A stretch of 64,000 bases of DNA. It comes from a virus (Duplodnaviria; Caudoviricetes). The translations under genes and the position numbers were made by a program. The stretch covers positions 96,001-160,000 of the IMG/VR virus record IMGVR_UViG_3300046615_000208; one strand, written 5' to 3'. The number at the start of each line of letters is the position of its first letter. Position 1 is the stretch's first letter. Positions 1,043 to 11,470 of the stretch are shown here, piece after piece. The notes under the pieces are model-generated. The model did not search any database, was not told the origin of the DNA, and was given only the letters and a program-made list of their open reading frames with translations.

Positions 1043-1132
1043 GCGTTTTTTGTAAGGGAGCCGGTGTTGACAGCATCGGCTCCCTTGCACTAGATTAGGT
1101 ATTACAAACCAACTAGTCCACAGGAGGACATC

Positions 1133-1531
1133 ATGGCAAAGCTCATCAAGCTGGACAACCAGACCATCAACGAACTGTTGGAAAGCCTGAAGCTCGTTGC
1201 GGGACAGAGCGGAGACTGGCGCGGAGTGCTGGACGGCGCAATCGACACCGTGGAGTCGTGGGCTGAGGCCACGGACGTACCGGAGCGCGTGATCTTCCGG
1301 AAGTTCCCCCACAACGGGGAAGTGATCGCCCTGTTCCCCGACCAGTACAACGAGCGGAACGGTAACATCGGGAGCTACATGCACAACGGACAGCACGCGG
1401 AAACGGCTCCCGACTTCGGAGACACCAAGCCTGCGGAGGCGCACGAGTACTACCACCTACAGCAGGAACTCATCCGGCAGGGATACCACAACCTGCGGAT
1501 CGTGAAGCGCTTCGGCAAGCTGGGCAAATAG
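1133..1531 (+). CDS. hypothetical early protein (VIFRKF...VIALFP...SYMH.GQH motif)
   Basis: GGAGGA RBS; own TTGACA/TAGATT promoter at about 1067-1096. Confidence 0.8.
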   Translation: MAKLIKLDNQTINELLESLKLVAGQSGDWRGVLDGAIDTVESWAEATDVPERVIFRKFPHNGEVIALFPDQYNERNGNIGSYMHNGQHAETAPDFGDTKPAEAHEYYHLQQELIRQGYHNLRIVKRFGKLGK

Positions 1532-1587
1532 TTACAAAAAACGCATACAGTCTAGGATTTGTGTCCTAGGCCGTATGCGTGTAGTCT
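1532..1587 (+). promoter_or_regulatory. cassette element: box + palindrome + -35 TTGTGT /17 bp/ -10 TAGTCT
   Basis: ACGCATAC..CTAGGA-TTTGTG-TCCTAG..GTATGCGT inverted repeat. Confidence 0.8.
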
Positions 1588-1624
1588 TTAGGTATCGGTT
1601 CATCAACGGCTTAGGAGGCCCACC

Positions 1625-2095
1625 ATGGTACACATGCTCACCATCAAGGATTTGGAAACCCGTTCGGACGGTACCTACTACACCGGACCACTGGAAGAGG
1701 CTAAGGCTTTCATCCACGACTGGATCGCCTCAACGGAGGCCCGATACAGCGACAAGAACGGGGAGGACAAGTACACCGTCCTGCTGGCCTACAGCGCTCC
1801 GAATGGCGAGATGGTGGAGACTGCCAACTACGACGAGTACGGGACCGGGAGGACCATGGAAGAGGCGTGGCGGTATGCTCTGGGCGCAGAGTTCGGTCCT
1901 GCCGACGACGAGTTCAACGCGTTCCCGCTGACACACGACAAGCGTGAAGCTGTCGCGGCCATGGTGGAACACCACTTCCCGGAACGTCTGGACACATTCT
2001 ACTCGGAGAGTACGGGACTGGCCGCAGTCGAGGACACGGATGGGAACATGTGGCGCGTATGGCCGGATGGGGACATTGAGGTCTACCGGCGCTAG
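1625..2095 (+). CDS. hypothetical early protein
   Basis: AGGAGG RBS; TAG adjacent to next box. Confidence 0.8.
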   Translation: MVHMLTIKDLETRSDGTYYTGPLEEAKAFIHDWIASTEARYSDKNGEDKYTVLLAYSAPNGEMVETANYDEYGTGRTMEEAWRYALGAEFGPADDEFNAFPLTHDKREAVAAMVEHHFPERLDTFYSESTGLAAVEDTDGNMWRVWPDGDIEVYRR

Positions 2096-2096
2096 G

Positions 2097-2152
2097 TTAC
2101 AAAAAACGCATATCGGGTGGGATTTGCATCCTGCCCGATATGCGTGTAATCT
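2097..2152 (+). promoter_or_regulatory. cassette element: -35 TTGCAT /17/ -10 TAATCT within hairpin
   Basis: ACGCATATCGGG..GGAT-TTGC-ATCC..CCCGATATGCGT. Confidence 0.85.
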
Positions 2153-2189
2153 TTAGGTACAAGGTAAGAACAACGGCTAGGAGGCCACC

Positions 2190-2435
2190 ATGAACAAGGC
2201 AAAAGCACTCAAGGTTCTGGCAGAGGTTGAAGAGCAGTTCAAGCTCTACATCGAAGCAGGGTACCCGCAACCGAACCTGCGGGACGCGGACCATGAGGAA
2301 CTGCCCAAGGGTTCATGGTCCATCGATTGGGAGGACGGTCCCGACGAATGGTGCTACGCAATGCCTGCGTCGAAGATTCCCGGTGTGTTCGTGGAACCGA
2401 TCATGTCGTTCATTCTCGGAGTCTACGACGACTAA
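2190..2435 (+). CDS. hypothetical early protein
   Basis: AGGAGG RBS. Confidence 0.8.
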   Translation: MNKAKALKVLAEVEEQFKLYIEAGYPQPNLRDADHEELPKGSWSIDWEDGPDEWCYAMPASKIPGVFVEPIMSFILGVYDD

Positions 2436-2494
2436 GACACCCTGAGAGGCCCTAGGAACCGCCTAGGGTCTCTCACTACCTGAGAGGCTACACA

Positions 2495-2710
2495 ATGTCC
2501 GCAAAGACGCTTACAAAGGCCGTAGCGATACGGGAAGGCTTGGCAGACTTCCAAGAGCAGGAACGGGAGGCGTGGCGGGCCTATGAAGAGGCTAACGCGT
2601 GCCACTGTTGCTGTTGTACCGGAGAGTGCTCCTACGCGTTCCAAGAGTCCACACCGGAGGAACAGGAAGCGTGGATGCGGAACTACTGGGACTGGTGGGA
2701 GAACCGATAG
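2495..2710 (+). CDS. small Cys-rich hypothetical protein
   Basis: CHCCCCTGEC motif; TAG abuts box. Confidence 0.65.
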   Translation: MSAKTLTKAVAIREGLADFQEQEREAWRAYEEANACHCCCCTGECSYAFQESTPEEQEAWMRNYWDWWENR

Positions 2711-2813
2711 TTACAAAAACCGCTTAGGCCGGTGGACTTGTGTCCATCGGCCATAGCGGGTAGAATCGTAGTATCGGGAACAAAGGGTTCCCCTGAAACC
2801 TTAGGAGGCTACA

Positions 2814-3047
2814 ATGGCAACACCACAGCATGCGGTCAAGGTAACACCGGCAGTAGTGGCACAGCGTTTTGCAATGGTGGAAAACGCGCCCACGGCTCCC
2901 ACAATCAACGGAAACCCTGCCAAGGTGTCCGGGTTCGCAAACCGGTTCGCGACGGTCACAGACAGCTTCACAGGCCTCTCTGCCGAGTGGTCTTGGGAGT
3001 CCGTCGAGCATGTAGTGAACAACCGGTTCGCGGCGTTCAAGGCATGA
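2814..3047 (+). CDS. hypothetical early protein
   Basis: AGGAGG RBS; promoter TTGTGT/17/TAGAAT at 2738-2766. Confidence 0.8.
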   Translation: MATPQHAVKVTPAVVAQRFAMVENAPTAPTINGNPAKVSGFANRFATVTDSFTGLSAEWSWESVEHVVNNRFAAFKA

Positions 3048-3181
3048 TCACGGTCACGGTCACATTCAAGGATGGGTCAGTAGACAACTGGTCTACCACC
3101 TTGGATTACGCGGTACATCTCACCGGCCAGTTGCTCATCGATCCGGACATTGTGGACGTGAGGCTATCGCGTCACGGATAG
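3044..3181 (+). CDS. small hypothetical protein (45 aa)
   Basis: ATGA overlap with upstream gene; TAG abuts box. Confidence 0.6.
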   Translation: MITVTVTFKDGSVDNWSTTLDYAVHLTGQLLIDPDIVDVRLSRHG

Positions 3182-3271
3182 TTACAAGAAACGCATAGCG
3201 GCTAGGACTTGCACCTAGCGGCTTTTGCGTGTAACCTTGAGGTATCAAGTCAAGCACTCAAGGGAGACACA

Positions 3272-3442
3272 ATGAACTTCGAAGCCGGAACCAAAGTCGA
3301 AATCCTCGAACGCGGCGCATGGGTAGGCCCGTTTGTCGTAACGCCTCATACGGCACGTACCGCCGATCATCTGGTACTCACCGGACCTAGCGGACTCTTC
3401 GAAGTCTACAACGACGCACCGTTCAACATCCGTAAGGCTTAG
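3272..3442 (+). CDS. hypothetical early protein
   Basis: Start moved to ATG after AGGGAG RBS; promoter TTGCAC/17/TAACCT. Confidence 0.7.
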   Translation: MNFEAGTKVEILERGAWVGPFVVTPHTARTADHLVLTGPSGLFEVYNDAPFNIRKA

Positions 3443-3539
3443 TTACAAAAACCGCTTAGGCCCTAGGACTTGCACCTAGGGCCTTAGGCGTGTAATGTTG
3501 TTCTTAGAGGGAGAGAGGGACTCTTCCGGATAGGGCACC

Positions 3540-3725
3540 ATGGAACTCTACAAGATCACCACAGCGGTCAAGGTCACTGAAAACCTCACGTGGGACCGCG
3601 TGTGTGACATTCTGGCAGTCTCCGACGATGGAGACGCGTGGGGCGCTCACGAGTGGCTCGAAGAGCGTGGAGAGTACCCGTTCCTGTCCGCCTACGGCGA
3701 CCAGATGATCCTGACTCGCATGTAG
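3540..3725 (+). CDS. hypothetical early protein
   Basis: Own promoter TTGCAC/17/TAATGT. Confidence 0.7.
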   Translation: MELYKITTAVKVTENLTWDRVCDILAVSDDGDAWGAHEWLEERGEYPFLSAYGDQMILTRM

Positions 3726-3827
3726 GTTACAAAAACCGCTTAGGGAGTCGGACTTGCATCCGGCTCCCCTAGCGGGTAAGCTTTAGGTAATGGAGCAACC
3801 GGCTCCCGGAAGTCCTAGGAGGACACA

Positions 3828-4091
3828 ATGGGTTACATGGAAGAATCAGACCGCCTCGAAGAAGCAGCGAACAAGAACCCGCTCAAAGAAGGCGTAGTCG
3901 GAAGCAAGCTCGTTGCGTACTTCGAGAACCTTGACGGACGCGTAGCGGTCGATGCCGAGTCCATCGAACACGTGGGCGTGGCCCAGCACGACTACAAGAT
4001 CACCTTCGAGGGTGGACTCGTTCAGGCCTACCGCGTGACGTTCGCGGACGGCATGAGCTCCGAGATTCTGGACGCAACGCCGCTCAACTAG
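3828..4091 (+). CDS. hypothetical early protein
   Basis: AGGAGG RBS; promoter TTGCAT/17/TAAGCT. Confidence 0.8.
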   Translation: MGYMEESDRLEEAANKNPLKEGVVGSKLVAYFENLDGRVAVDAESIEHVGVAQHDYKITFEGGLVQAYRVTFADGMSSEILDATPLN

Positions 4092-4186
4092 TTACAAAAA
4101 CCGCTTAGGGTCCGGACTAGACATTCGGACCCTAAGCCGGTAGACTCATCACAACGGAACAATCCGGAAACCAAAAGGAGCAAGTC

Positions 4187-4474
4187 ATGAAGTCGGTAAT
4201 CACCAAGCTGGAAGTCTCGGAGCGTCTGCTGGGCGTGGATCGCTACGAACTGGAAGTCAAGGGCCAAAAGGCCCACAACACCATCGTGGAACTCCACACG
4301 GACATCAACACCGGAGACCGCCACGTCTTCGTCCAGACGCCGGTAAACGGCGGCCTGACGCCGTCCACGGCTGATGCAGTCGCTCGACGCCTCATCGACG
4401 GTGCACGGAAGTACGCGGGAAACCACGTGACACCCGCCAGCGTGGTACGGGTTGGACGCTACGCGGCCAGCTAG
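4187..4474 (+). CDS. hypothetical early protein
   Basis: AAGGAG RBS; promoter TAGACA/17/TAGACT. Confidence 0.8.
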   Translation: MKSVITKLEVSERLLGVDRYELEVKGQKAHNTIVELHTDINTGDRHVFVQTPVNGGLTPSTADAVARRLIDGARKYAGNHVTPASVVRVGRYAAS

Positions 4475-4568
4475 TTACAAAACACGCGTAGAGCCTCGGA
4501 CTTGTGTCTGAGGCTCTTTGCGTGTAAGCTCTAAGTATCGGAACAATCCGAAGACGAAAGGCAAGACA

Positions 4569-4826
4569 ATGAACATCAAGCTCATTCACAACATCGTGGA
4601 CATGACCCAGATGCACGGATTCGGCAACGATTTCTCGCTGGTCTACGGCTTCGATAACGGCACCAAGATGGCCGTATCGCGTAACCCCATGACAGGTGGA
4701 CACAAGGCCGGTTTCATGGCCGTCCTGCCCTACGACAAGGCCGGTAACCAGATTGACGAGCGTGCCGAGTCGTGGCTCACCCCGCAGGAAGTCGCGGAGA
4801 AGATGGAAATCCTCGCCAGCGAGTAG
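4569..4826 (+). CDS. hypothetical early protein
   Basis: GAAAGG RBS; promoter TTGTGT/17/TAAGCT. Confidence 0.75.
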   Translation: MNIKLIHNIVDMTQMHGFGNDFSLVYGFDNGTKMAVSRNPMTGGHKAGFMAVLPYDKAGNQIDERAESWLTPQEVAEKMEILASE

Positions 4827-4909
4827 TTACAAGAAACGCGTAGGGCCTAAGTTGACTTCGGTCAGCTTAGGCCTTATGCTTGTAGTACACACCAACGAAA
4901 GAGGAAACC

Positions 4910-5116
4910 ATGGCTCGCTACTCCACTCCAGCAACTCGCGCCTACGCTCGTGACAAGGCCGAAATCATCGGCGCGGCTGAGCGCGTGATCTACGGCGAAA
5001 TCCTCGACTTTGTCCTGCGGGTAGGCAGGCACAAGGCTACGCCGTTCCTCGCCGTACTGGGCGGGTTCGCGTACATCATCTTTGGTCACGGGCTTGTGAA
5101 CTCCATAAACCTGTGA
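4910..5116 (+). CDS. small membrane protein
   Basis: C-terminal hydrophobic segment; promoter TTGACT/17/TATGCT. Confidence 0.7.
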   Translation: MARYSTPATRAYARDKAEIIGAAERVIYGEILDFVLRVGRHKATPFLAVLGGFAYIIFGHGLVNSINL

Positions 5117-5384
5117 TACAATAAACTCACAGACATACACTGAAGCCTCCGGAGATGACCACCAAATCTCTCCGGAGGCTTCGCCAATTGTGGGATAGTT
5201 GGCTTACAAAAAACGCGTAGCGGATAGGTTTGCATTCCGGCGCAAAGGTGGTAAGCTTAGAACATGGAAGGGGAGGTTAGGAGCCTCCACCCGCCAGACT
5301 AAGAATCTGGGGGTTCGGGAAGTGATCGCCCACCGATCACCGGCAGGCCAGTCCGCAACTGGCCGTATAACTCAACAGTGAAAG

Positions 5385-5603
5385 GTGGACACCATGGTAG
5401 AAGTTCCCATGGAAGAGGCTGACGTTCTGGAACAGGTCAAGGCCAAGACGGGAGCGGTAGACGCGAAGGTGTCTGGGAGGCCCACAAACTGGGTCTGGTC
5501 GGTCCTGCTGGCATTCCCGGATGGTCCGGACGCCTACACGTTCCAGACGCGTCTGGTGGACGTAGAAGGCCCTGAGATTCGGTTCGTCGGCTTCGACTTC
5601 TAG
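5385..5603 (+). CDS. hypothetical early protein behind a structured leader
   Basis: GAAAGG RBS; TAG abuts box. Confidence 0.7.
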   Translation: MDTMVEVPMEEADVLEQVKAKTGAVDAKVSGRPTNWVWSVLLAFPDGPDAYTFQTRLVDVEGPEIRFVGFDF

Positions 5604-5712
5604 TTACAAAAAGCGCATAGCCTGTCTTCGGACAGGCTATTTGCATTTGGGCGCAAAGGTGGTAAGCTTATTCCATAAGCAGTTCACAACTCCACAGAGA
5701 AAAGAGAGACCA

Positions 5713-5919
5713 GTGAAGGTTTTCTTCGAAGCACTTGTCGATGGACAGTACGTCAACCAGAAGCGCCTCGCGGATATCCCGGATGAGAAAGCTTACGCTA
5801 GGGCGGCTAAGGCCTACCCGAACGATCCGGACTACGTGGAGGAAATGCTCGACGGACGCGGCTACATCACCATCAAGGGCCACAACTGCCGGTTCACTTA
5901 CCAGCAGGACAGCCTCTAG
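5713..5919 (+). CDS. hypothetical early protein
   Basis: GTG start after purine-rich RBS; TAG abuts box. Confidence 0.7.
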   Translation: MKVFFEALVDGQYVNQKRLADIPDEKAYARAAKAYPNDPDYVEEMLDGRGYITIKGHNCRFTYQQDSL

Positions 5920-6022
5920 TTACAAATAGCGCATAGGGCCTCTACGGAGGCCCTATTTGCATTTGGGCGCAAAGGTGGTATCGTTGAGTTATCGGCAAGG
6001 GTTGCCGGTGAGAGAGGGAACC

Positions 6023-6337
6023 ATGGACAAGTACACGACTGAAGCTCTGGAAGCTGCGAAGAACAGCACTAGCTCGATGAGCGCGGGGGATCGCAACGCC
6101 GCTCCCTACCTGCTCAAGCTGGACACTGTGGAGCAGCGTAAGCGTGCTGTAGGGGACGCGCACACTCGGATGAACCTCATGGGGTTCCGCTACTCCGAAG
6201 CTGTCTACCACTCCGTTAGTGACCTGCTGAAGAACATTGCCGCAGGGGAAGAGGACAAGCCACTCTATGGCGAAGCCACTGCGAAGAAGTACCGGGACGC
6301 GGAAAACGAACGCCGGAAGCTGGAACGCGGCTACTGA
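6023..6337 (+). CDS. hypothetical early protein
   Basis: GAGGG RBS, ATG 6023. Confidence 0.75.
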   Translation: MDKYTTEALEAAKNSTSSMSAGDRNAAPYLLKLDTVEQRKRAVGDAHTRMNLMGFRYSEAVYHSVSDLLKNIAAGEEDKPLYGEATAKKYRDAENERRKLERGY

Positions 6338-6351
6338 TACAAAAAGCGCTT

Positions 6352-6387
6352 AGGCTCTCATCCTCCGGGGTGGGAGCCTTTTGCTTT
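6352..6387 (+). terminator. intrinsic terminator closing the rightward arm
   Basis: AGGCTCTCATCC-TCCG-GGGTGGGAGCCT followed by TTTGCTTT. Confidence 0.75.
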
Positions 6388-6607
6388 GCCTGCGGGTGGC
6401 CCTCTGTGACGTTCTGGGAGCCTCTGAGGCTCGGGGTGGCACTCTCACCCACGCGGGCGATTCTAGGGCCTTAGACGGGCACGTAAGGCCTGCGGTAGGT
6501 CTACACGTGCTGTGCGACTCTGGGCGGCTGTTTAAGGGCCTAACTGGGCGCAGACGTACAAAGACCCCCAACCTTTCGGTTGAGGGCCTCTGTGGGGCTG
6601 TGAGGGC

Positions 6608-6838
6608 CTAGAACGGCGGTTCAAACTCTGGGAGGTAAGTCCGGAGTTCCGGAGCGGGAAGTTCGGGGACTACGTGACCGTAAGGGCAAGCGTTGTCGTA
6701 GTCGAGGTAGTCGTGCTCTTCGCAGTAGTAGGCCTGTTCATCCGCGAAGTGATCGACGTTGTCCGCCGCCATTGCTTCGCGCCACGCGGAGTCATCCCGG
6801 TTGTAGTCCTGCTCTTCCTGCCACTGTACCTGAGACAT
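6608..6838 (-). CDS. acidic hypothetical protein
   Basis: GAGG RBS, ATG 6838; C-x2-H..C-x3-H motif. Confidence 0.7.
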   Translation of the reverse strand: MSQVQWQEEQDYNRDDSAWREAMAADNVDHFADEQAYYCEEHDYLDYDNACPYGHVVPELPAPELRTYLPEFEPPF

Positions 6839-6935
6839 TTTTTCCTCTCGTGGCCGGTGTTTCCGGCTCATGTACTGAGCTTAGCACGGCAAACAGAAAA
6901 CGCGCAACCCCGAAGGGTTACGCGTTTTTTGTAGG

Positions 6936-7169
6936 CTACAGATCGTTCCGGTGTTCGTAATCCGAAACCAGCTTAGCCTCGATAGCTTCGTCAAGCTCTT
7001 CCCGTGTCACGAACGGCTTGTTAGGGTGTTCGTGTGACTCCATGGCCTCGCACTTTTCGCAAGTCTCGTACAGGTCCGGGAGGTAGATTGCGGCAACCCA
7101 AGATTCTTCACCGGTAGCCTTCGTCCACTCGGCAGCGGCTTCGTTGAACGGGATGAGTGATGCGGACAT
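6936..7169 (-). CDS. hypothetical early protein
   Basis: AAGGAG RBS; CxxC. Confidence 0.75.
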   Translation of the reverse strand: MSASLIPFNEAAAEWTKATGEESWVAAIYLPDLYETCEKCEAMESHEHPNKPFVTREELDEAIEAKLVSDYEHRNDL

Positions 7170-7261
7170 TGGTTTCTCCTTGGTTGTTTTTGACCTTGTA
7201 CCTAAAGCATAGCACGGTTTGGTGGAGCGTGTCTAGTCGGGAGGCTGTGCGTTTTTTGTAA

Positions 7262-7312
7262 GTCCCATTTTTATTTTATGGGTCCTCCGGTTTCCCTGCT
7301 GGTGGGCTTCAT
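7262..7312 (-). ncRNA. candidate small RNA copy A (AUGAAGC...GGAGGACCC family)
   Basis: Promoter TTGACA(7347-7342)/17/TAGACT(7324-7319); no substantial ORF; similar to 9629 and 10258 copies. Confidence 0.5.
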
Positions 7313-7362
7313 GGTTCAAGTCTAAGGCCTGTCGGCCTGAGTGTCAAGCCTACGGCAGACAC

Positions 7363-7392
7363 AAAAGAGGGGAGCCTTTCGGCTCCCCTCTT
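7363..7392 (-). terminator. intrinsic terminator (identical 20-mer at 9753-9772)
   Basis: GGGGAGCCTTTCGGCTCCCC hairpin with U-tract on - strand. Confidence 0.8.
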
Positions 7393-7404
7393 ATGCGTTT
7401 TTTG

Positions 7405-7662
7405 TTACCATGCGAAGTAGCTTGAGGTCCGCCAGCTACGGAGGATGGTGTAATCGGTAAGGCGTTCGGCCTGTTCCCACGTGGTGGGCTGTACAAGGCC
7501 CGTAGCGGGGTTCAGAATGGCTGGCTTGACCGCGTGTACGCCGATGAGGATTGCAGGCTCTCCTTCGAGCGTGAAGCGCTTTGCGGCGATTGCCTCGCGG
7601 CGTTCCATGCTCACGATGGTGAGCGGCTGAGTGGCGAGGATTCGAGCGACTGTGCGGAACAT
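7405..7662 (-). CDS. hypothetical early protein
   Basis: AGGGAG RBS, ATG 7662. Confidence 0.7.
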   Translation of the reverse strand: MFRTVARILATQPLTIVSMERREAIAAKRFTLEGEPAILIGVHAVKPAILNPATGLVQPTTWEQAERLTDYTILRSWRTSSYFAW

Positions 7663-7752
7663 TTTGACTCCCTGACTGGTGGCTTGCTGTTGGTACAAGC
7701 TTAGCATAGGTCCGGTGCTGTTGCCAACACCGAACCTATGCGTTTTTTGTAG

Positions 7753-7998
7753 CTAGTCGATGTCCACCGCGACACGTGCCAGCGATCCGGTACCGAAGTA
7801 GTCCACATTCAGCAGGTACTCCGCGCCATTCCAGCGAGCGCGTGCGCCGCTCCTGTAGCCGTTGTCGAGCATGTGATCAGCGATGGCCTCGCTGGATGCG
7901 TTCTCGATGGCGTAGGCCTTGCCACGGACGACGTAGCGGCTTCCGGCCACTCCGCGAACTGTGCGCTGGGTCTGGTTCTTCTTGATGGTCTTTCCCAT
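7753..7998 (-). CDS. hypothetical early protein
   Basis: AAGGAG RBS. Confidence 0.75.
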   Translation of the reverse strand: MGKTIKKNQTQRTVRGVAGSRYVVRGKAYAIENASSEAIADHMLDNGYRSGARARWNGAEYLLNVDYFGTGSLARVAVDID

Positions 7999-8094
7999 TG
8001 TCTTTGTGCTCCTTGTGAAGTGTGTTGTTGAGTTGCCCTAGTTGGCATTCCCGCTTAGGTGATACTTGAGTGTACCACCTAAGCGAGCAAACCG

Positions 8095-8343
8095 CTAGGG
8101 GAGTTCCAGTAGCCAAGTGTCTGAGTAGACATTCTTTCGGATGATAACGGTATCATCCTTTGCCAGTTCTTCCAGCTTCCGGGAGTAGTTCCGGATGTTT
8201 TCCGGAGTCTCCGCTATGTCGTGGTAGGAGAGGACATTCTCTACCGTCTTCCGGATGAGCGTTGCGCGATCCTGTGAGTGGGAATCGTAGAATCCATCGT
8301 GCCATTCTTCGATGTACTGGAGGATGTTTGCTTCGCGTGACAT
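8095..8343 (-). CDS. hypothetical early protein
   Basis: AAGGAG RBS; promoter TTGCAT/17/TAGACT. Confidence 0.75.
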   Translation of the reverse strand: MSREANILQYIEEWHDGFYDSHSQDRATLIRKTVENVLSYHDIAETPENIRNYSRKLEELAKDDTVIIRKNVYSDTWLLELP

Positions 8344-8433
8344 GTCCTGCTCCTTTGTTCTCGGCTTGTTCCGATAACTAGAGTCTACGCTAGTCCGGAG
8401 AGTTATGCAACCCTCCGGACTAAGCGTTTTTTG

Positions 8434-8625
8434 TTAGTCTTCGAGGTCTTCGATCTCTTCCGCCTCTGCGGGCTGGAATCCGTGCTGGTCTTCGAGTTCT
8501 TCGAGGGTGGTGTAGAAGAATCCACCGATCCCATCCGGAGTGATGAAGTACATGTCATCCTTGCGGATGTAGTAGGCCGTGTCCACGGCGAGTTCGGAAC
8601 GCGGGGTGATGGTTGCCTGTGCCAT
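8434..8625 (-). CDS. acidic hypothetical protein
   Basis: AAAGGA RBS; promoter TTGCAA/17/TAAGCT. Confidence 0.75.
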   Translation of the reverse strand: MAQATITPRSELAVDTAYYIRKDDMYFITPDGIGGFFYTTLEELEDQHGFQPAEAEEIEDLED

Positions 8626-8713
8626 TGTTTTTTCCTTTGTTTGAGTGGCTATGTATCTAGCTTAGCCTAGGTGAGGGAGTCTTGCAACTCCCCCACCTAA
8701 GCGTTTTTTGTAA

Positions 8714-8968
8714 CTACGCTTTACCGTAGTGGCCACCATCCGGCAGGCCAGCTGTGCAGGGGTAGAAGTGGATCGGCCACGCGGCATCTTCGCCACCCTC
8801 AGCGAGGAAATCCGAGTTGTAGTCGAGCCACAGATCACGCTTGGAGTCGAACTCGTCGTTAAACCAGTCGTGGCCTTTGGTGGCCTTTGCAACGTCTGCA
8901 CAGTCTGCGCGGTGGACGCTGACGTCGTAGTCGTTGTTCCCGTTGCCGTTAATGGTTACCAGCTTCAT
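8714..8968 (-). CDS. hypothetical early protein (H-x3-C...C motif)
   Basis: AAGGAG RBS; promoter TTGTAT/17/TACGCT. Confidence 0.8.
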   Translation of the reverse strand: MKLVTINGNGNNDYDVSVHRADCADVAKATKGHDWFNDEFDSKRDLWLDYNSDFLAEGGEDAAWPIHFYPCTAGLPDGGHYGKA

Positions 8969-9061
8969 GATGACTCCTTAGGTCTCGGCTTGTTCCGATA
9001 TGACTAGCGTACACGCAAAAGGTCCGAGATACAAATCTCGGACCCTATGCGTTTTTTGTAG

Positions 9062-9493
9062 CTAGCCGATGTAGATGCTCACCTTGTTGGCAACATCCCA
9101 GACGGCGAGTTGTTCGCGTTCCTTGGCAACGAGAATGGCCATCTCGTAGTCTTCGAACCACTCTGAGGCCTCTGCGTAGACGACTCCGGACTCTACCCAT
9201 GTTCCCATGAGTCCGAGGCCGTCAGTGGCTGCGTAAGCCATTCCCAGAGCGAATTGGTAGTCTCGTGTGTCCGAGTCTGCGAGATTGAACATGTGGGGCT
9301 TGTGGAGGCCTGACACGTAGTAGCCGTGCGTGTGCGTGGCGATTGCCATTGTGGGGCTGGAGAGGTCCAGCGTTACGCCACCGTTGGCGTGTGTCTCACG
9401 TGAGAGGGTGACGCCGCGAATCTGACCATAGGTCCGGAGCTTCGGGGTGACGCCGGAGTTTTCGTTACGCATGGTTTCGACGGTGACAGTCAT
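9062..9493 (-). CDS. hypothetical early protein
   Basis: AGGAGG RBS, ATG 9493. Confidence 0.75.
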   Translation of the reverse strand: MTVTVETMRNENSGVTPKLRTYGQIRGVTLSRETHANGGVTLDLSSPTMAIATHTHGYYVSGLHKPHMFNLADSDTRDYQFALGMAYAATDGLGLMGTWVESGVVYAEASEWFEDYEMAILVAKEREQLAVWDVANKVSIYIG

Positions 9494-9628
9494 TGTTTCC
9501 TCCTGAGTGGATCGGATGGTTTGATATGAAGAGCATACCACTACTTTAGGAGATGATGCAAACTACGCGATTGTTACGTGCGTTTTTTGTAAGTTGCGTG
9601 TGAGCGCGGATGCGTGTATGCTCAGAGT

Positions 9629-9682
9629 ATGAAGCAACCGATTGAAGCTGGGTCACTGGAGGACCCCTAAAATAAGTGGGCC
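9629..9682 (+). ncRNA. candidate small RNA copy B
   Basis: Promoter TTGCGT(9594)/17/TATGCT(9617); ATGAAGC...GGAGGACCCCTAAAATAAGTGGG. Confidence 0.45.
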
Positions 9683-9782
9683 GGAAAGTAGGCATCACTC
9701 CATTCTCTCATAGTTTTTGGGTGGTTGTCAAGCTGCCGGAGGGCAAAGAAAAGGGGAGCCTTTCGGCTCCCCTTCCCTCACC

Positions 9783-10094
9783 TTAGAGGGTTTCGTACTT
9801 GCCGTCCGCCTGACGGTACTTGATGTACGTGCAACCCGCGTCATGCGTGGCCCAGTCGAGCGGCTGGAACGCGTCCTCCGAGTCCGCGTCACCATAGAAG
9901 TAGCCGGTGAAGTAGCAGTTGTCGTCGTCGTCGTACAGCTTGAAGTGGGTGCCCTTGCCAGCCTTGCCAGCCTTGATCGCGTCACGCTCTGCGGGGCTGG
10001 TGCCGTACACGCGGGGCTTCTCCAGCTTCTCCAGCTTCTCACCGAAGTTCGGGTTGTTCTCTTCGATTGCCGAGTGAGTGATCGTGAATCCCAT
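9783..10094 (-). CDS. hypothetical protein (FKLYDDD..YF.G...PLD....AGCT.I.Y)
   Basis: TAGGAG RBS. Confidence 0.8.
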   Translation of the reverse strand: MGFTITHSAIEENNPNFGEKLEKLEKPRVYGTSPAERDAIKAGKAGKGTHFKLYDDDDNCYFTGYFYGDADSEDAFQPLDWATHDAGCTYIKYRQADGKYETL

Positions 10095-10196
10095 TGTGAC
10101 TCCTAAGTCCGTTTCTCAAGCTCCCTGCTTGATGACTTAAGTCTCTCATACATTCCGGACGGATGCAACTCCATTCTGACAATGCGTTTTTTGTAA

Positions 10197-10258
10197 GTGT
10201 GGTTTGTGGAGGTTGGAGTTTTTGGGGTCCTCTGGTTTCCCTGCCTCCGGAGCTTCAT
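10197..10258 (-). ncRNA. candidate small RNA copy C
   Basis: Promoter TTGACT(10293-10288)/17/TAGACT(10270-10265); about 70-bp similarity to 7280-7350. Confidence 0.5.
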
Positions 10259-10360
10259 AGTATGAGTCTAAGGCCTATTCGGCGCAGAGTCAAGCGGCGC
10301 TGTGTGGCGTTCTAAGCCACGCAAAAGGACCCTACCGTAGTAGGGTCCTAGTGGCCGGTG

Positions 10361-10633
10361 CTAGTCGCAGCAGTGGCGGCTGGTGCACGTGTGGTTGTGG
10401 ATGTTGCACGCGCTGTCCGTCAGGATTCCCTCGGTGGACTCGGTACGCTCCACTTCCTGCATCTCGGAGGGGTCAGCGTATCCGCCCAGTTCCTGATCGC
10501 ACTCGGTGCACTCGGTGTTGCTGGTGGAGTACTCGCCACAGTTGGAGCAGGCGAACAGGGTGGGGCAGTCGCACTCGGTGTTGGCCGGTTCCATGTTTTC
10601 GTACTGCCGCTGTGCTGAGGCGAATCCGCGCAT
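10361..10633 (-). CDS. Cys/His-rich putative zinc-binding protein
   Basis: Multiple CxC/CxxC; TAGGAG RBS. Confidence 0.7.
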   Translation of the reverse strand: MRGFASAQRQYENMEPANTECDCPTLFACSNCGEYSTSNTECTECDQELGGYADPSEMQEVERTESTEGILTDSACNIHNHTCTSRHCCD

Positions 10634-10730
10634 CTTGACTCCTAAGTCGTATCGGCTTGTTCCGATGTACTAAGCCTAAGGCATGCGGTGAGGGATTGCA
10701 ACACCATGCGGTGAAGCGTTTCTTGTAACC

Positions 10731-11180
10731 CTATGCGGTGCACTCTGGGTAGCTCCACAGTTCGTCGTATTCGAACTGGTGAGCGTAGGCCTCAGCCTCG
10801 CACTCGTTGGCTCCCATAGTGTGTGCAAGCTCATGGAACAGGATGTGATTCCCCCACGCTGTGTAGGCAAGCTCAGGGGAGATAAGGACAGCGTACTGTC
10901 CATTGTCCATAGGGACAGTGCATCCTCCCTGCCCAACAGTGGAGAGTTCAGCGCCACAGTTGTCTTCATTCTGGAACAGGAACACCACGTTCTCAGGGTA
11001 GTCTACGCCACCATCAGCAAGGGCCTCACGCGCCCAGAGTGAGGGTAGCTTGAATGGTGCGAGGGATAGGGTGGTGGAGTAGTTGGCAGTCTCCCTAACA
11101 GGCGCTGACGTGGGCGCTGGGGCCTGCACTGGTGCAAAGATAGCTGACAGTGTGAGCAGGATGGTGAGCATGATGTTCAC
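10731..11180 (-). CDS. secreted or membrane-anchored HExxH metallopeptidase-like protein
   Basis: Signal-like N-terminus; FHELAH..G..E.EAEAYA. Confidence 0.65.
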   Translation of the reverse strand: MNIMLTILLTLSAIFAPVQAPAPTSAPVRETANYSTTLSLAPFKLPSLWAREALADGGVDYPENVVFLFQNEDNCGAELSTVGQGGCTVPMDNGQYAVLISPELAYTAWGNHILFHELAHTMGANECEAEAYAHQFEYDELWSYPECTA

Positions 11181-11209
11181 TGTGACTCCCTTGTGAGTGG
11201 TTGACTAAG

Positions 11210-11470
11210 TCAATCCTCTCATGAGTTTGTCTCATGTGTCAACTCGAAACACTAAGCGTCTTTTGTAAAGTTTGTGCCTTGTTTCTACACACGCGCACAT
11301 GTGCACGCGATTGTCCTCTATTGTTTGGTGTTTGTCAACATGCTGGCCCTAAGAGTTTTTTGTAACCCTCGTGTGGGAGTGCGTGATTATCCTCTAGTTT
11401 TTTGGGATTGTCAATGGGTTTGGCAAAGAGTTTTTTGTAACCTCGTGCGCGTGAAGCGTTTTTTGTAACG
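11210..11470 (-). promoter_or_regulatory. tandem leftward promoters with boxes
   Basis: Three box + TTGACA units and a fourth box; no convincing ORF. Confidence 0.65.

Follow-up and report, generated by a model that had tools for sequence, protein, structure and literature searches.

An undescribed family of predicted AUG-started small RNAs from gene-less early cassettes of an Arthrobacter-type phage

The stretch of DNA considered here (the window, 64,000 nucleotides) comprises bases 96,001-160,000 of the virus record IMGVR_UViG_3300046615_000208, a single contig of 171,752 bp and 53% G+C that IMG/VR classes as a virus and rates as 99% complete. Three of its cassettes lack an open reading frame (ORF) and are referred to as copies A, B and C. 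Together with a fourth copy outside the window and relatives in other phages they constitute a previously undescribed, conserved family of phage small RNAs, the RNAs being predicted from the DNA sequence. In each member a promoter for host RNA polymerase would place the start of transcription on an invariant AUGAAGC, which is followed by a variable linker and a purine-rich core. The favoured reading, to which a probability of roughly 0.4 is assigned, is that these RNAs are early, high-dose, trans-acting decoys for a factor that recognises the 5' regions of mRNAs.

The defining motif, ATGAAGC-N(8-30)-GGG-N6-GAGGACCC, is found three times in the window and not once in 100 shuffles. In copies A, B and C alike, ATGAAGC follows the -10 box after exactly 6 nt (TGAACC in copy A, CATACT in copy C), giving predicted starts at 7312 (minus strand), 9629 (plus strand) and 10258 (minus strand), respectively. 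Copies A and C are identical at 56 of 77 aligned positions (73%) from -40 to about +40, the promoter included. An initial annotation of the window had pointed to a motif shared by three ORF-less cassettes, to this promoter geometry and to about 70 bp common to copies A and C, and it holds up on all three counts. In the genome as a whole, the core model (R1) picks out four copies and no more, which score 32-33 bits (copy A 33 bits, E 1e-8; copy B 32.3 bits; copy C 32.1 bits); the next match scores 12 bits.

To survey the family, IMG/VR and metagenomes were scanned with patterns, and related records (referred to below by handles such as L001) were then searched in full. At least 25 distinct members, a lower bound, are present in nine related phage contigs, at 2-4 per phage and with four in the source phage. 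All 25 have the same layout: TTGnnn, a spacer of 17-18 nt, a -10 box nAnnnT, 6 nt and ATGAAGC. (Ascertainment bias toward ATGAAGC was controlled for by a search of IMG/VR with the core only: its 12 matches are all known members, and all of them carry ATGAAGC.) Linkers of 9, 10, 11, 13, 14, 19, 22, 23 and 24 nt lead to a core of consensus GC(A/U)GGG-NN-AC-NN-G-RR-GA-S-CC. The variable purines of the core change by A/G transitions only, and a GGAG/GAGG-type (Shine-Dalgarno-like) tract is present in 18 of the 23 aligned cores. The tail that follows is A-rich in most members and U-rich instead in two orthologues of copy C.

Among the genomes scanned, the family is restricted to the source phage's group of relatives. 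The RNA loci have no match in GenBank phage records (megablast and blastn). Three scans of 185,579 prokaryote species genomes with strict patterns returned only chance-level matches, lying inside ORFs of unrelated phyla and outside any promoter context, and the only array-like repetition of the core in these genomes is that of Gly-Asn-Gln (collagen-like GNQ) coding repeats. Rfam 15 yields no match in the window at gathering thresholds, and for the three loci and two relatives only terminator-like noise at E up to 10.

What is conserved is nucleotide sequence. The core falls in frame 0, 1 and 2 relative to the AUG in 9, 3 and 13 members, respectively; the ORFs that open at the 5' AUG extend over anything from 8 to 80 codons with unconserved stops (in the L060/L061/L133 subtype the stop comes after 8 codons, 5' of the core); and the linker lengths have no bias to multiples of three. 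The 35-nt element of copy C is identical to its two orthologues at 35/35 and 34/35 positions, beside a gene in which 25% and 30% of third codon positions differ (P about 5e-5) and downstream of 40 nt that are essentially unalignable (19/40 identical). Likewise, the 39-nt element of copy B matches its L009 counterpart at 37/39 positions next to a homologous protein that is only 31% identical. The three frames, the ORFs of 8-80 codons and the near-invariant elements beside diverged genes support the view that selection acts on RNA or DNA sequence and not on a peptide. The initial annotation had argued the same from the window copies, in which GAGGACCC does indeed occupy three frames relative to the ATG (the three peptides quoted were correct), and the relatives do not settle on a single reading frame either. 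Members with long linkers add a structural feature, a hairpin of 4-6 bp at constant position that is built from five different complementary stems (CCGC/GCGG, GCCG/CGGC, ACGCC/GGCGU, GUCCC/GGGAC and UAUCCC/GGGAUA). In one instance GGGAC of the fourth stem is GGGGC, which creates a G-U pair on the RNA-sense strand.

The members are ORF-less cassettes inside an early array of small genes. The genome between 80.6 and 107.5 kb consists of two convergent arrays of about 55 small-gene cassettes, each of which runs from a stop codon through a box (TTACAAAAAACGC), an inverted repeat with the -35 box in its loop and a -10 box to a 5' untranslated region (UTR) of about 30 nt, usually AUC-started, followed by a Shine-Dalgarno sequence and ATG. 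Ordinary early mRNAs of the source phage start with AUC, and family members with AUG. The junctions between cassettes are modular (window 1043-11468 and genome 80.6-96 kb): orthologous cassettes of related phages lose homology in the promoter/hairpin region, and their transcribed parts are near-identical despite this, which suggests that cassettes are shuffled by recombination at box/promoter junctions. The phage itself is Arthrobacter-type; its weak blastn matches in GenBank phage records are to Arthrobacter phages. Only one of its protein genes has a match in these records (Arthrobacter and Microbacterium phages; megablast and blastn), and its NAPRTase homologue leads to Polaromonas and other non-actinobacterial genomes only. 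No tRNA or tmRNA gene lies within the 64-kb window.

Table 1. Coordinates of the three copies and their neighbourhood in the window. Promoter scores are matches out of 12 consensus positions; the terminator scan applies a T-run threshold.
Feature	Position	Strand	Basis and remarks
Terminator (intrinsic) of gene 7405-7662, just 5' of the copy A promoter	7365..7392	-	scan
Promoter of copy A, TTGACA-17-TAGACT	7347-7319	-	scan, 10/12
Motif, copy A	7312-7280	-	pattern search
Predicted RNA 5' domain of copy A: ATGAAGC, 9-nt linker, GGGAAACCGGAGGACCC, tail ATAAAATAAAAATGGGAC	7262..7312	-	pattern and model
Promoter of copy B, TTGCGT-17-TATGCT	9594..9622	+	sequence reading, 7/12, unlisted by scan
Motif, copy B	9629-9666	+	pattern search
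Predicted RNA 5' domain of copy B: ATGAAGC, linker AACCGATTGAAGCT, GGGTCACTGGAGGACCCC, tail TAAAATAA	9629..9680	+	pattern and model
Convergent promoter facing copy B, TTGACA-18-(TG)GAGAAT	9731-9702	-	scan, 10/12, TG extension
Hairpin GGGGAGCC-TTTC-GGCTCCCC	9753..9772	both	sequence reading
Gene P0001, 103 aa, phrog_12268 (function unknown)	9783..10094	-	flanked by copy C, in its own direction, and by the convergent copy B
Motif, copy C	10258-10225	-	pattern search
Predicted RNA 5' domain of copy C: ATGAAGC, linker TCCGGAGGCA, GGGAAACCAGAGGACCCC, C/A-rich G-free tail to box 10184-10194	10195..10258	-	
Promoter of copy C, TTGACT-17-TAGACT	10293-10265	-	scan, 9/12
Terminator hairpin of gene 10361-10633, just 5' of the copy C promoter	10326..10349	-	sequence reading

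The surroundings of the three window copies are not uniform. A terminator had been reported just upstream of copies A and C, and this is clear by scan for copy A, where 7392-7365 is bidirectional (a stem of 12 bp, with a U-run on each strand). It can be read, below the T-run threshold of the scan, for copy C (10349-10326; a 10-bp stem and loop TACG, then UUUGCG). Copy B has a T-run upstream and no solid hairpin. The description of the promoters as near-consensus fits copies A and C and overstates copy B, whose promoter is of the TTGCnT type common in the array. This promoter is kept in the L001 orthologue (37/40 identical), and the B-type copies of L009 and L028 have stronger ones (TTGACA...TAAAAT or TTGACT...TAAGCT). 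The RNA size of about 50-60 nt that had been proposed is not established in the window, copies A and C having no terminator within 300 nt and copy B extending about 145 nt to a hairpin.

Copy B is oriented antisense to the gene array and faces a strong promoter on the opposite strand that is conserved in L001 and L028. Six nucleotides beyond the -10 box of that promoter lies a predicted start at 9695 (ATGCCTAC), so placed that the convergent transcript would likewise be AUG-started and would contain the copy B core in complementary form. The hairpin at 9753-9772 is read as the terminator of gene 9783-10094 on the minus strand and, on the plus strand, is probably where the copy B RNA ends, giving the length of about 145 nt; equivalent hairpins are found at +125 to +145 in L001 and L028. 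An ORF of 49 codons (9546-9695, minus strand) opens at the AUG of the convergent transcript; it is antisense to copy B and continues through the box into the next promoter and across it. As a conserved feature it was rejected: the frame is kept in L028 (with a 6-nt indel) and lost in L009, and this ORF is probably not a gene.

The fourth copy lies 2.9 kb 5' of the window at genome positions 93067-92890, minus strand (L027:13067-12890, minus strand). It is of the long type: ATGAAGC leads into a linker with the hairpin CCGC-AAAGGA-GCGG, and an A-rich tail follows the core GGGTCACCGGGAGACCCC. This copy is antisense in a plus-strand array and converges with the promoter of an ORF-less cassette at genome ~92900-92935, whose hairpin would serve as antisense terminator and end the fourth-copy RNA after about 175 nt. 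Long-type members (this copy and those of L002, L003, L061 and L132) are followed by a downstream domain, GGCCTTCCCCGCCACCCGTCTCAGGGCGGCTATCATG, and a relic at genome ~95250-95350 (plus strand) retains only the A-rich tail and this domain, with neither promoter nor 5' domain. In every copy the hairpin of the downstream domain contains an A-C mismatch if read on the family strand and a G-U pair if read on the other, and one compensatory change is seen besides. It is on these grounds that the hairpin probably belongs to the transcript of the convergent partner.

Orientation and transcript ends bear on how the family might work. Relative to the array, some members are sense and others antisense. 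Some have a terminator directly 3' (L009/L010, paired members: +44 to +62; L007: +65 to +80; L015: +68 to +85). L008, L009 and L010 each contain a pair of members that point towards one another, about 105 nt apart, and in L009/L010 the two have a common central hairpin with a flanking A-tract and U-tract, as in a bidirectional terminator. The occurrence of both orientations and of dedicated terminators in some relatives argues for discrete RNAs acting in trans, and self-contained, trans-acting RNA genes are the favoured interpretation.

According to the favoured reading, several strong early promoters would yield large amounts of the RNAs as soon as infection begins, and the RNAs would serve in trans as decoys that occupy a factor. 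They have the makings of an mRNA 5' end, namely a leaderless AUG, a Shine-Dalgarno-like tract of purines and a spacer rich in A, with no gene behind. This resemblance to an mRNA start, combined with several strong early promoters, points to a target that recognises mRNA 5' regions; the likeliest class would be the translation-initiation apparatus, an RNase or a host defence nuclease. (We infer the start of transcription, the 3' ends of the window RNAs, the target and the trans mode of action.) As a general idea, decoy action by a small RNA with its own promoter is plausible, and fits with the 2-4 strongly promoted copies per genome, in both orientations and, in some relatives, with terminators of their own. 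Precedent for a promoter-proximal phage decoy RNA with dose dependence exists in the RNA anti-CRISPRs, or Racrs (PMC10651486). In mycobacteria, a transcript that starts with AUG or GUG is always translated, and a 5' AUG is necessary and sufficient for ribosome loading (PMC4633059).

A narrower version of the decoy proposal, which must be reckoned a long shot, has the gene-less imitations of mRNA starts loading 70S ribosomes through the 5' AUG and trapping or diverting a factor that inspects mRNA 5' ends. If that factor were the machinery that initiates translation on the many leaderless mRNAs of the host, the outcome would be a selective host shut-off in which the phage's own Shine-Dalgarno-led genes would be spared; alternatively, the target might be a ribosome- or mRNA-targeting defence toxin. 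If true, trapping by imitation mRNA starts would represent a new class of phage takeover or anti-defence RNA.

On the other hand, a number of observations weigh against trans-acting decoys. Copies A and C read into the next cassette (copy A into box 7249-7259 and gene 6936-7169) and could be extra 5' leaders of the next gene. Around half of the members face a convergent promoter, an arrangement that fits cis-antisense control or transcriptional interference as well. The promoter of copy B matches consensus at only the 7 of 12 positions already tabulated, and start site and RNA ends are sequence-based predictions. Folding of single sequences reveals no stability beyond that of shuffled ones (z about 0), and the core hairpin GGGUC/GACCC lacks covariation and is 70% paired, as against 71% in shuffles; by these two measures there is no structural signature of a protein-binding aptamer. 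(The weak folding, and a core helix without covariation, make it seem that the core is read as largely single-stranded sequence.) Moreover, no host RNA or repeat that the core might mimic was found in the species genomes scanned. Perfect complementarity of 11-13 nt to targets in the phage genome is present at chance numbers only. A 13-nt same-sense identity (GAAGCTCCGGAGG) between the 5' part of copy C and the phage tRNA-Val(TAC) (genome 5654-5726, plus strand), spanning the anticodon-stem, variable-loop and T-stem region, was set aside because about one such identity is expected by chance.

The alternative that survives best, although it appears unlikely on balance, is that the family is a cis-acting regulatory module, a 5' leader or cis-antisense partner that tunes neighbouring cassettes through convergent transcription (collision or interference), through duplex formation and RNase III cleavage, or through translational coupling into the next gene. 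Beyond the read-through of copies A and C, it can draw on the AUG-initiated ORF of copy C, which ends in a TAG overlapping the Shine-Dalgarno sequence of gene 9783-10094, and on the convergent promoters that copy B, the fourth copy and all long-type or paired members face at 68-130 nt. It can also draw on gene P0001 (9783-10094). P0001 is a conserved neighbour of the RNA family: it is bracketed by members in the source phage, L001 and L007, and adjoins members in the more distant L008, L009 and L010. Three phages thus keep the module of copy C, P0001, terminator and a B (or A-type) copy in convergent orientation. However, homologues of P0001 without flanking members exist (L188 and L189). The same core, moreover, stands beside unrelated genes in both orientations, the members L015 +851 and L007 -4028 stand alone with their own terminator and no partner promoter, neighbouring genes have promoters of their own, and a leader would not need 2-4 paralogues with one invariant core.

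The P0001 protein is itself uninformative as to a connection with RNA. Neither it nor the neighbouring proteins contain a Pfam domain. Its invariant motifs are DD..Y..G and F.PL...GCT, and its AlphaFold model is confident (pLDDT 89, pTM 0.78), matching no structure in the PDB (Foldseek best E 0.3, VIA-align best Z 3.2); its fold may be undescribed. Structure and domain searches gave no clue to an RNA-binding role. The 5' UTR of the gene (10103-10150, minus strand), which is 100% identical between the source phage and L001, starts AUCAAGCAGGGAGCUUGAGAAACGGAC and has AU-N-AAGC, GAAAC and GGAC in common with the family. An ordinary cassette 5' UTR of this kind may have given rise to the RNA family, or the same factor may read both.

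A second alternative, and a distinctly unlikely one, is that what is conserved is a DNA element beside a promoter, for example an R-loop (transcription-primed) replication origin or a site bound by a phage or host regulator, the RNA being incidental. Replication origins of T7 and T4 combine a promoter with an unwinding element, and the sequence of the RNA strand, purine-rich and then an A/T-rich tract, is compatible with this layout, as is the weak RNA structure; the paired members of L008/L009/L010, furthermore, make up an imperfect palindrome of about 190 bp. It is difficult to reconcile such an element with the fixed position and orientation of all 25 members relative to the promoter, exactly 6 nt before ATGAAGC, while the promoter sequences are freely replaced, a combination that indicates a defined RNA 5' end. 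The linker hairpins with their compensatory changes (including the G-U pair on the sense strand) and the U-rich tail of two copy C orthologues also count against it.

A still less probable reading is that the cassettes are leaderless micro-ORFs, specifying tiny proteins (MK...) or a minigene-like act of translation. The predicted +1 is the A of the AUG in 25/25 members, 13 of which are in the frame that reads ...GNQRTPK, and mycobacterial transcripts that start with AUG or GUG are translated (PMC4633059). The phage also appears to have a leaderless gene of its own, at least one, in which ATG follows the -10 box after 6 nt as it does in the family (window about -560). But the distribution of the core over all three frames, the unconserved stops (with the 8-codon subtype ending short of the core), the linker lengths and the conservation at nucleotide level, would-be synonymous sites included, all speak against translation as the function. 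The apparent leaderless gene, at genome ~95385-95470 on the plus strand (window about -616 to -530), consists of TTGCGG-17-TACGCT, 6 nt, ATGGCAACCC and a long ORF; its promoter is like that of copy B.

Mimicry of a specific host RNA (an RNA anti-CRISPR, a type III antitoxin mimic, or a 23S sarcin-ricin loop decoy for a ribotoxic toxin) is comparably improbable. The cassettes are promoter-proximal, solitary, strongly promoted and multi-copy, in the manner of Racrs (PMC10651486). The long-type hairpin, followed by a segment of about 12 nt ending in ...GGGAAAC, resembles CRISPR-repeat architecture, and the phage invests heavily in translation RNAs (three tRNA genes were checked). In 3 of the 25 members, ACGAGAGGAC or ACGAGAGGAG resembles ACGAGAGGACC, which we take to be the sequence of the 23S sarcin-ricin loop, a resemblance that serves as a lead only. 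Opposed to this are the absence of any counterpart of the core from the species genomes, the lack of a match in Rfam (CRISPR repeat families included) at E up to 10, and the absence of the hairpin from short-type members. The sarcin-ricin version is poorly matched by the family: relative to that rRNA sequence, the 5' strand is GAAA/GUCA/GACA and not the AGUA of the bulged-G motif (AGUA/GAA), and the positions equivalent to the GAGA tetraloop, which a C-G pair closes in the rRNA, vary (C/G/U, A/G, G, A/G). The RNA anti-CRISPR and type III antitoxin mimics proposed in the initial annotation are likewise unsupported, since an array-like counterpart is missing from the genomes scanned and Rfam is silent.

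To our knowledge, decoy small RNAs of phages are a recent and small class, and we know of almost nothing of the kind in phages of Actinobacteria. The present family is well bounded, multi-copy and driven by host-type early promoters, the purifying selection on it is measurable, and it is small enough for direct testing. It indicates that early-array cassettes can carry RNA genes besides protein genes. The invariant 5' AUG matters in that a 5' AUG alone loads ribosomes in Actinobacteria, and a family found to be aimed at the translation apparatus or at a defence nuclease would amount to a new, RNA-only way to take over or disarm the host.

Among known systems, the put RNA of phage HK022 is an antitermination RNA with two stable stem-loops that acts in cis on its own operon. 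The family is comparable in being a conserved RNA element directly 3' of strong early phage promoters in a terminator-rich region, but has no conserved stable fold, and only its optional linker hairpin covaries. An antiterminator of the put type was therefore rejected: there are no conserved stems, and several members lie antisense to the array or have a terminator directly 3', at +44 to +85. With the leaderless mRNAs and small ORFs of actinobacteria (PMC4633059) the family has in common a predicted AUG-started transcript; unlike them, it has no conserved frame, ORF length or peptide, and it is the nucleotides that are conserved.

Racrs, which are dose-dependent decoys for host proteins, are defined by similarity to CRISPR repeats (PMC10651486). 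Like them, the family is a short non-coding intergenic unit in a mobile element, directly 3' of its own strong promoter, solitary and not beside cas genes. Similarity to CRISPR repeats was found neither in Rfam CRISPR-DR (E up to 10) nor in the 185,579 genomes, the patterns being strict and the host unidentified, and the family differs from Racrs in its invariant 5' AUGAAGC and in the 2-4 diverged copies per genome. An antitoxin mimic of the pseudo-ToxI type, which would resemble a bacterial tandem-repeat antitoxin RNA encoded beside a toxN-type gene, is also unsupported: the scans of prokaryote genomes brought up neither a tandem nor a single counterpart of the core, and the phage copies are single units.

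The early non-coding RNAs of the mycobacteriophage group L5, D29 and StarStuff are abundant, are transcribed from Pleft and come from single regions of about 500 bp at the right genome end (PMC5712189). They have no similarity to the present region by blastn against phage records, and the family departs from them in consisting of conserved domains of about 45 nt, in several copies within a cassette array and with a 5' AUG. These RNAs, which likewise belong to actinobacteriophages, lack an ORF, are made from a strong, early, host-type promoter and are of unknown function, are nonetheless the nearest actinophage precedent.

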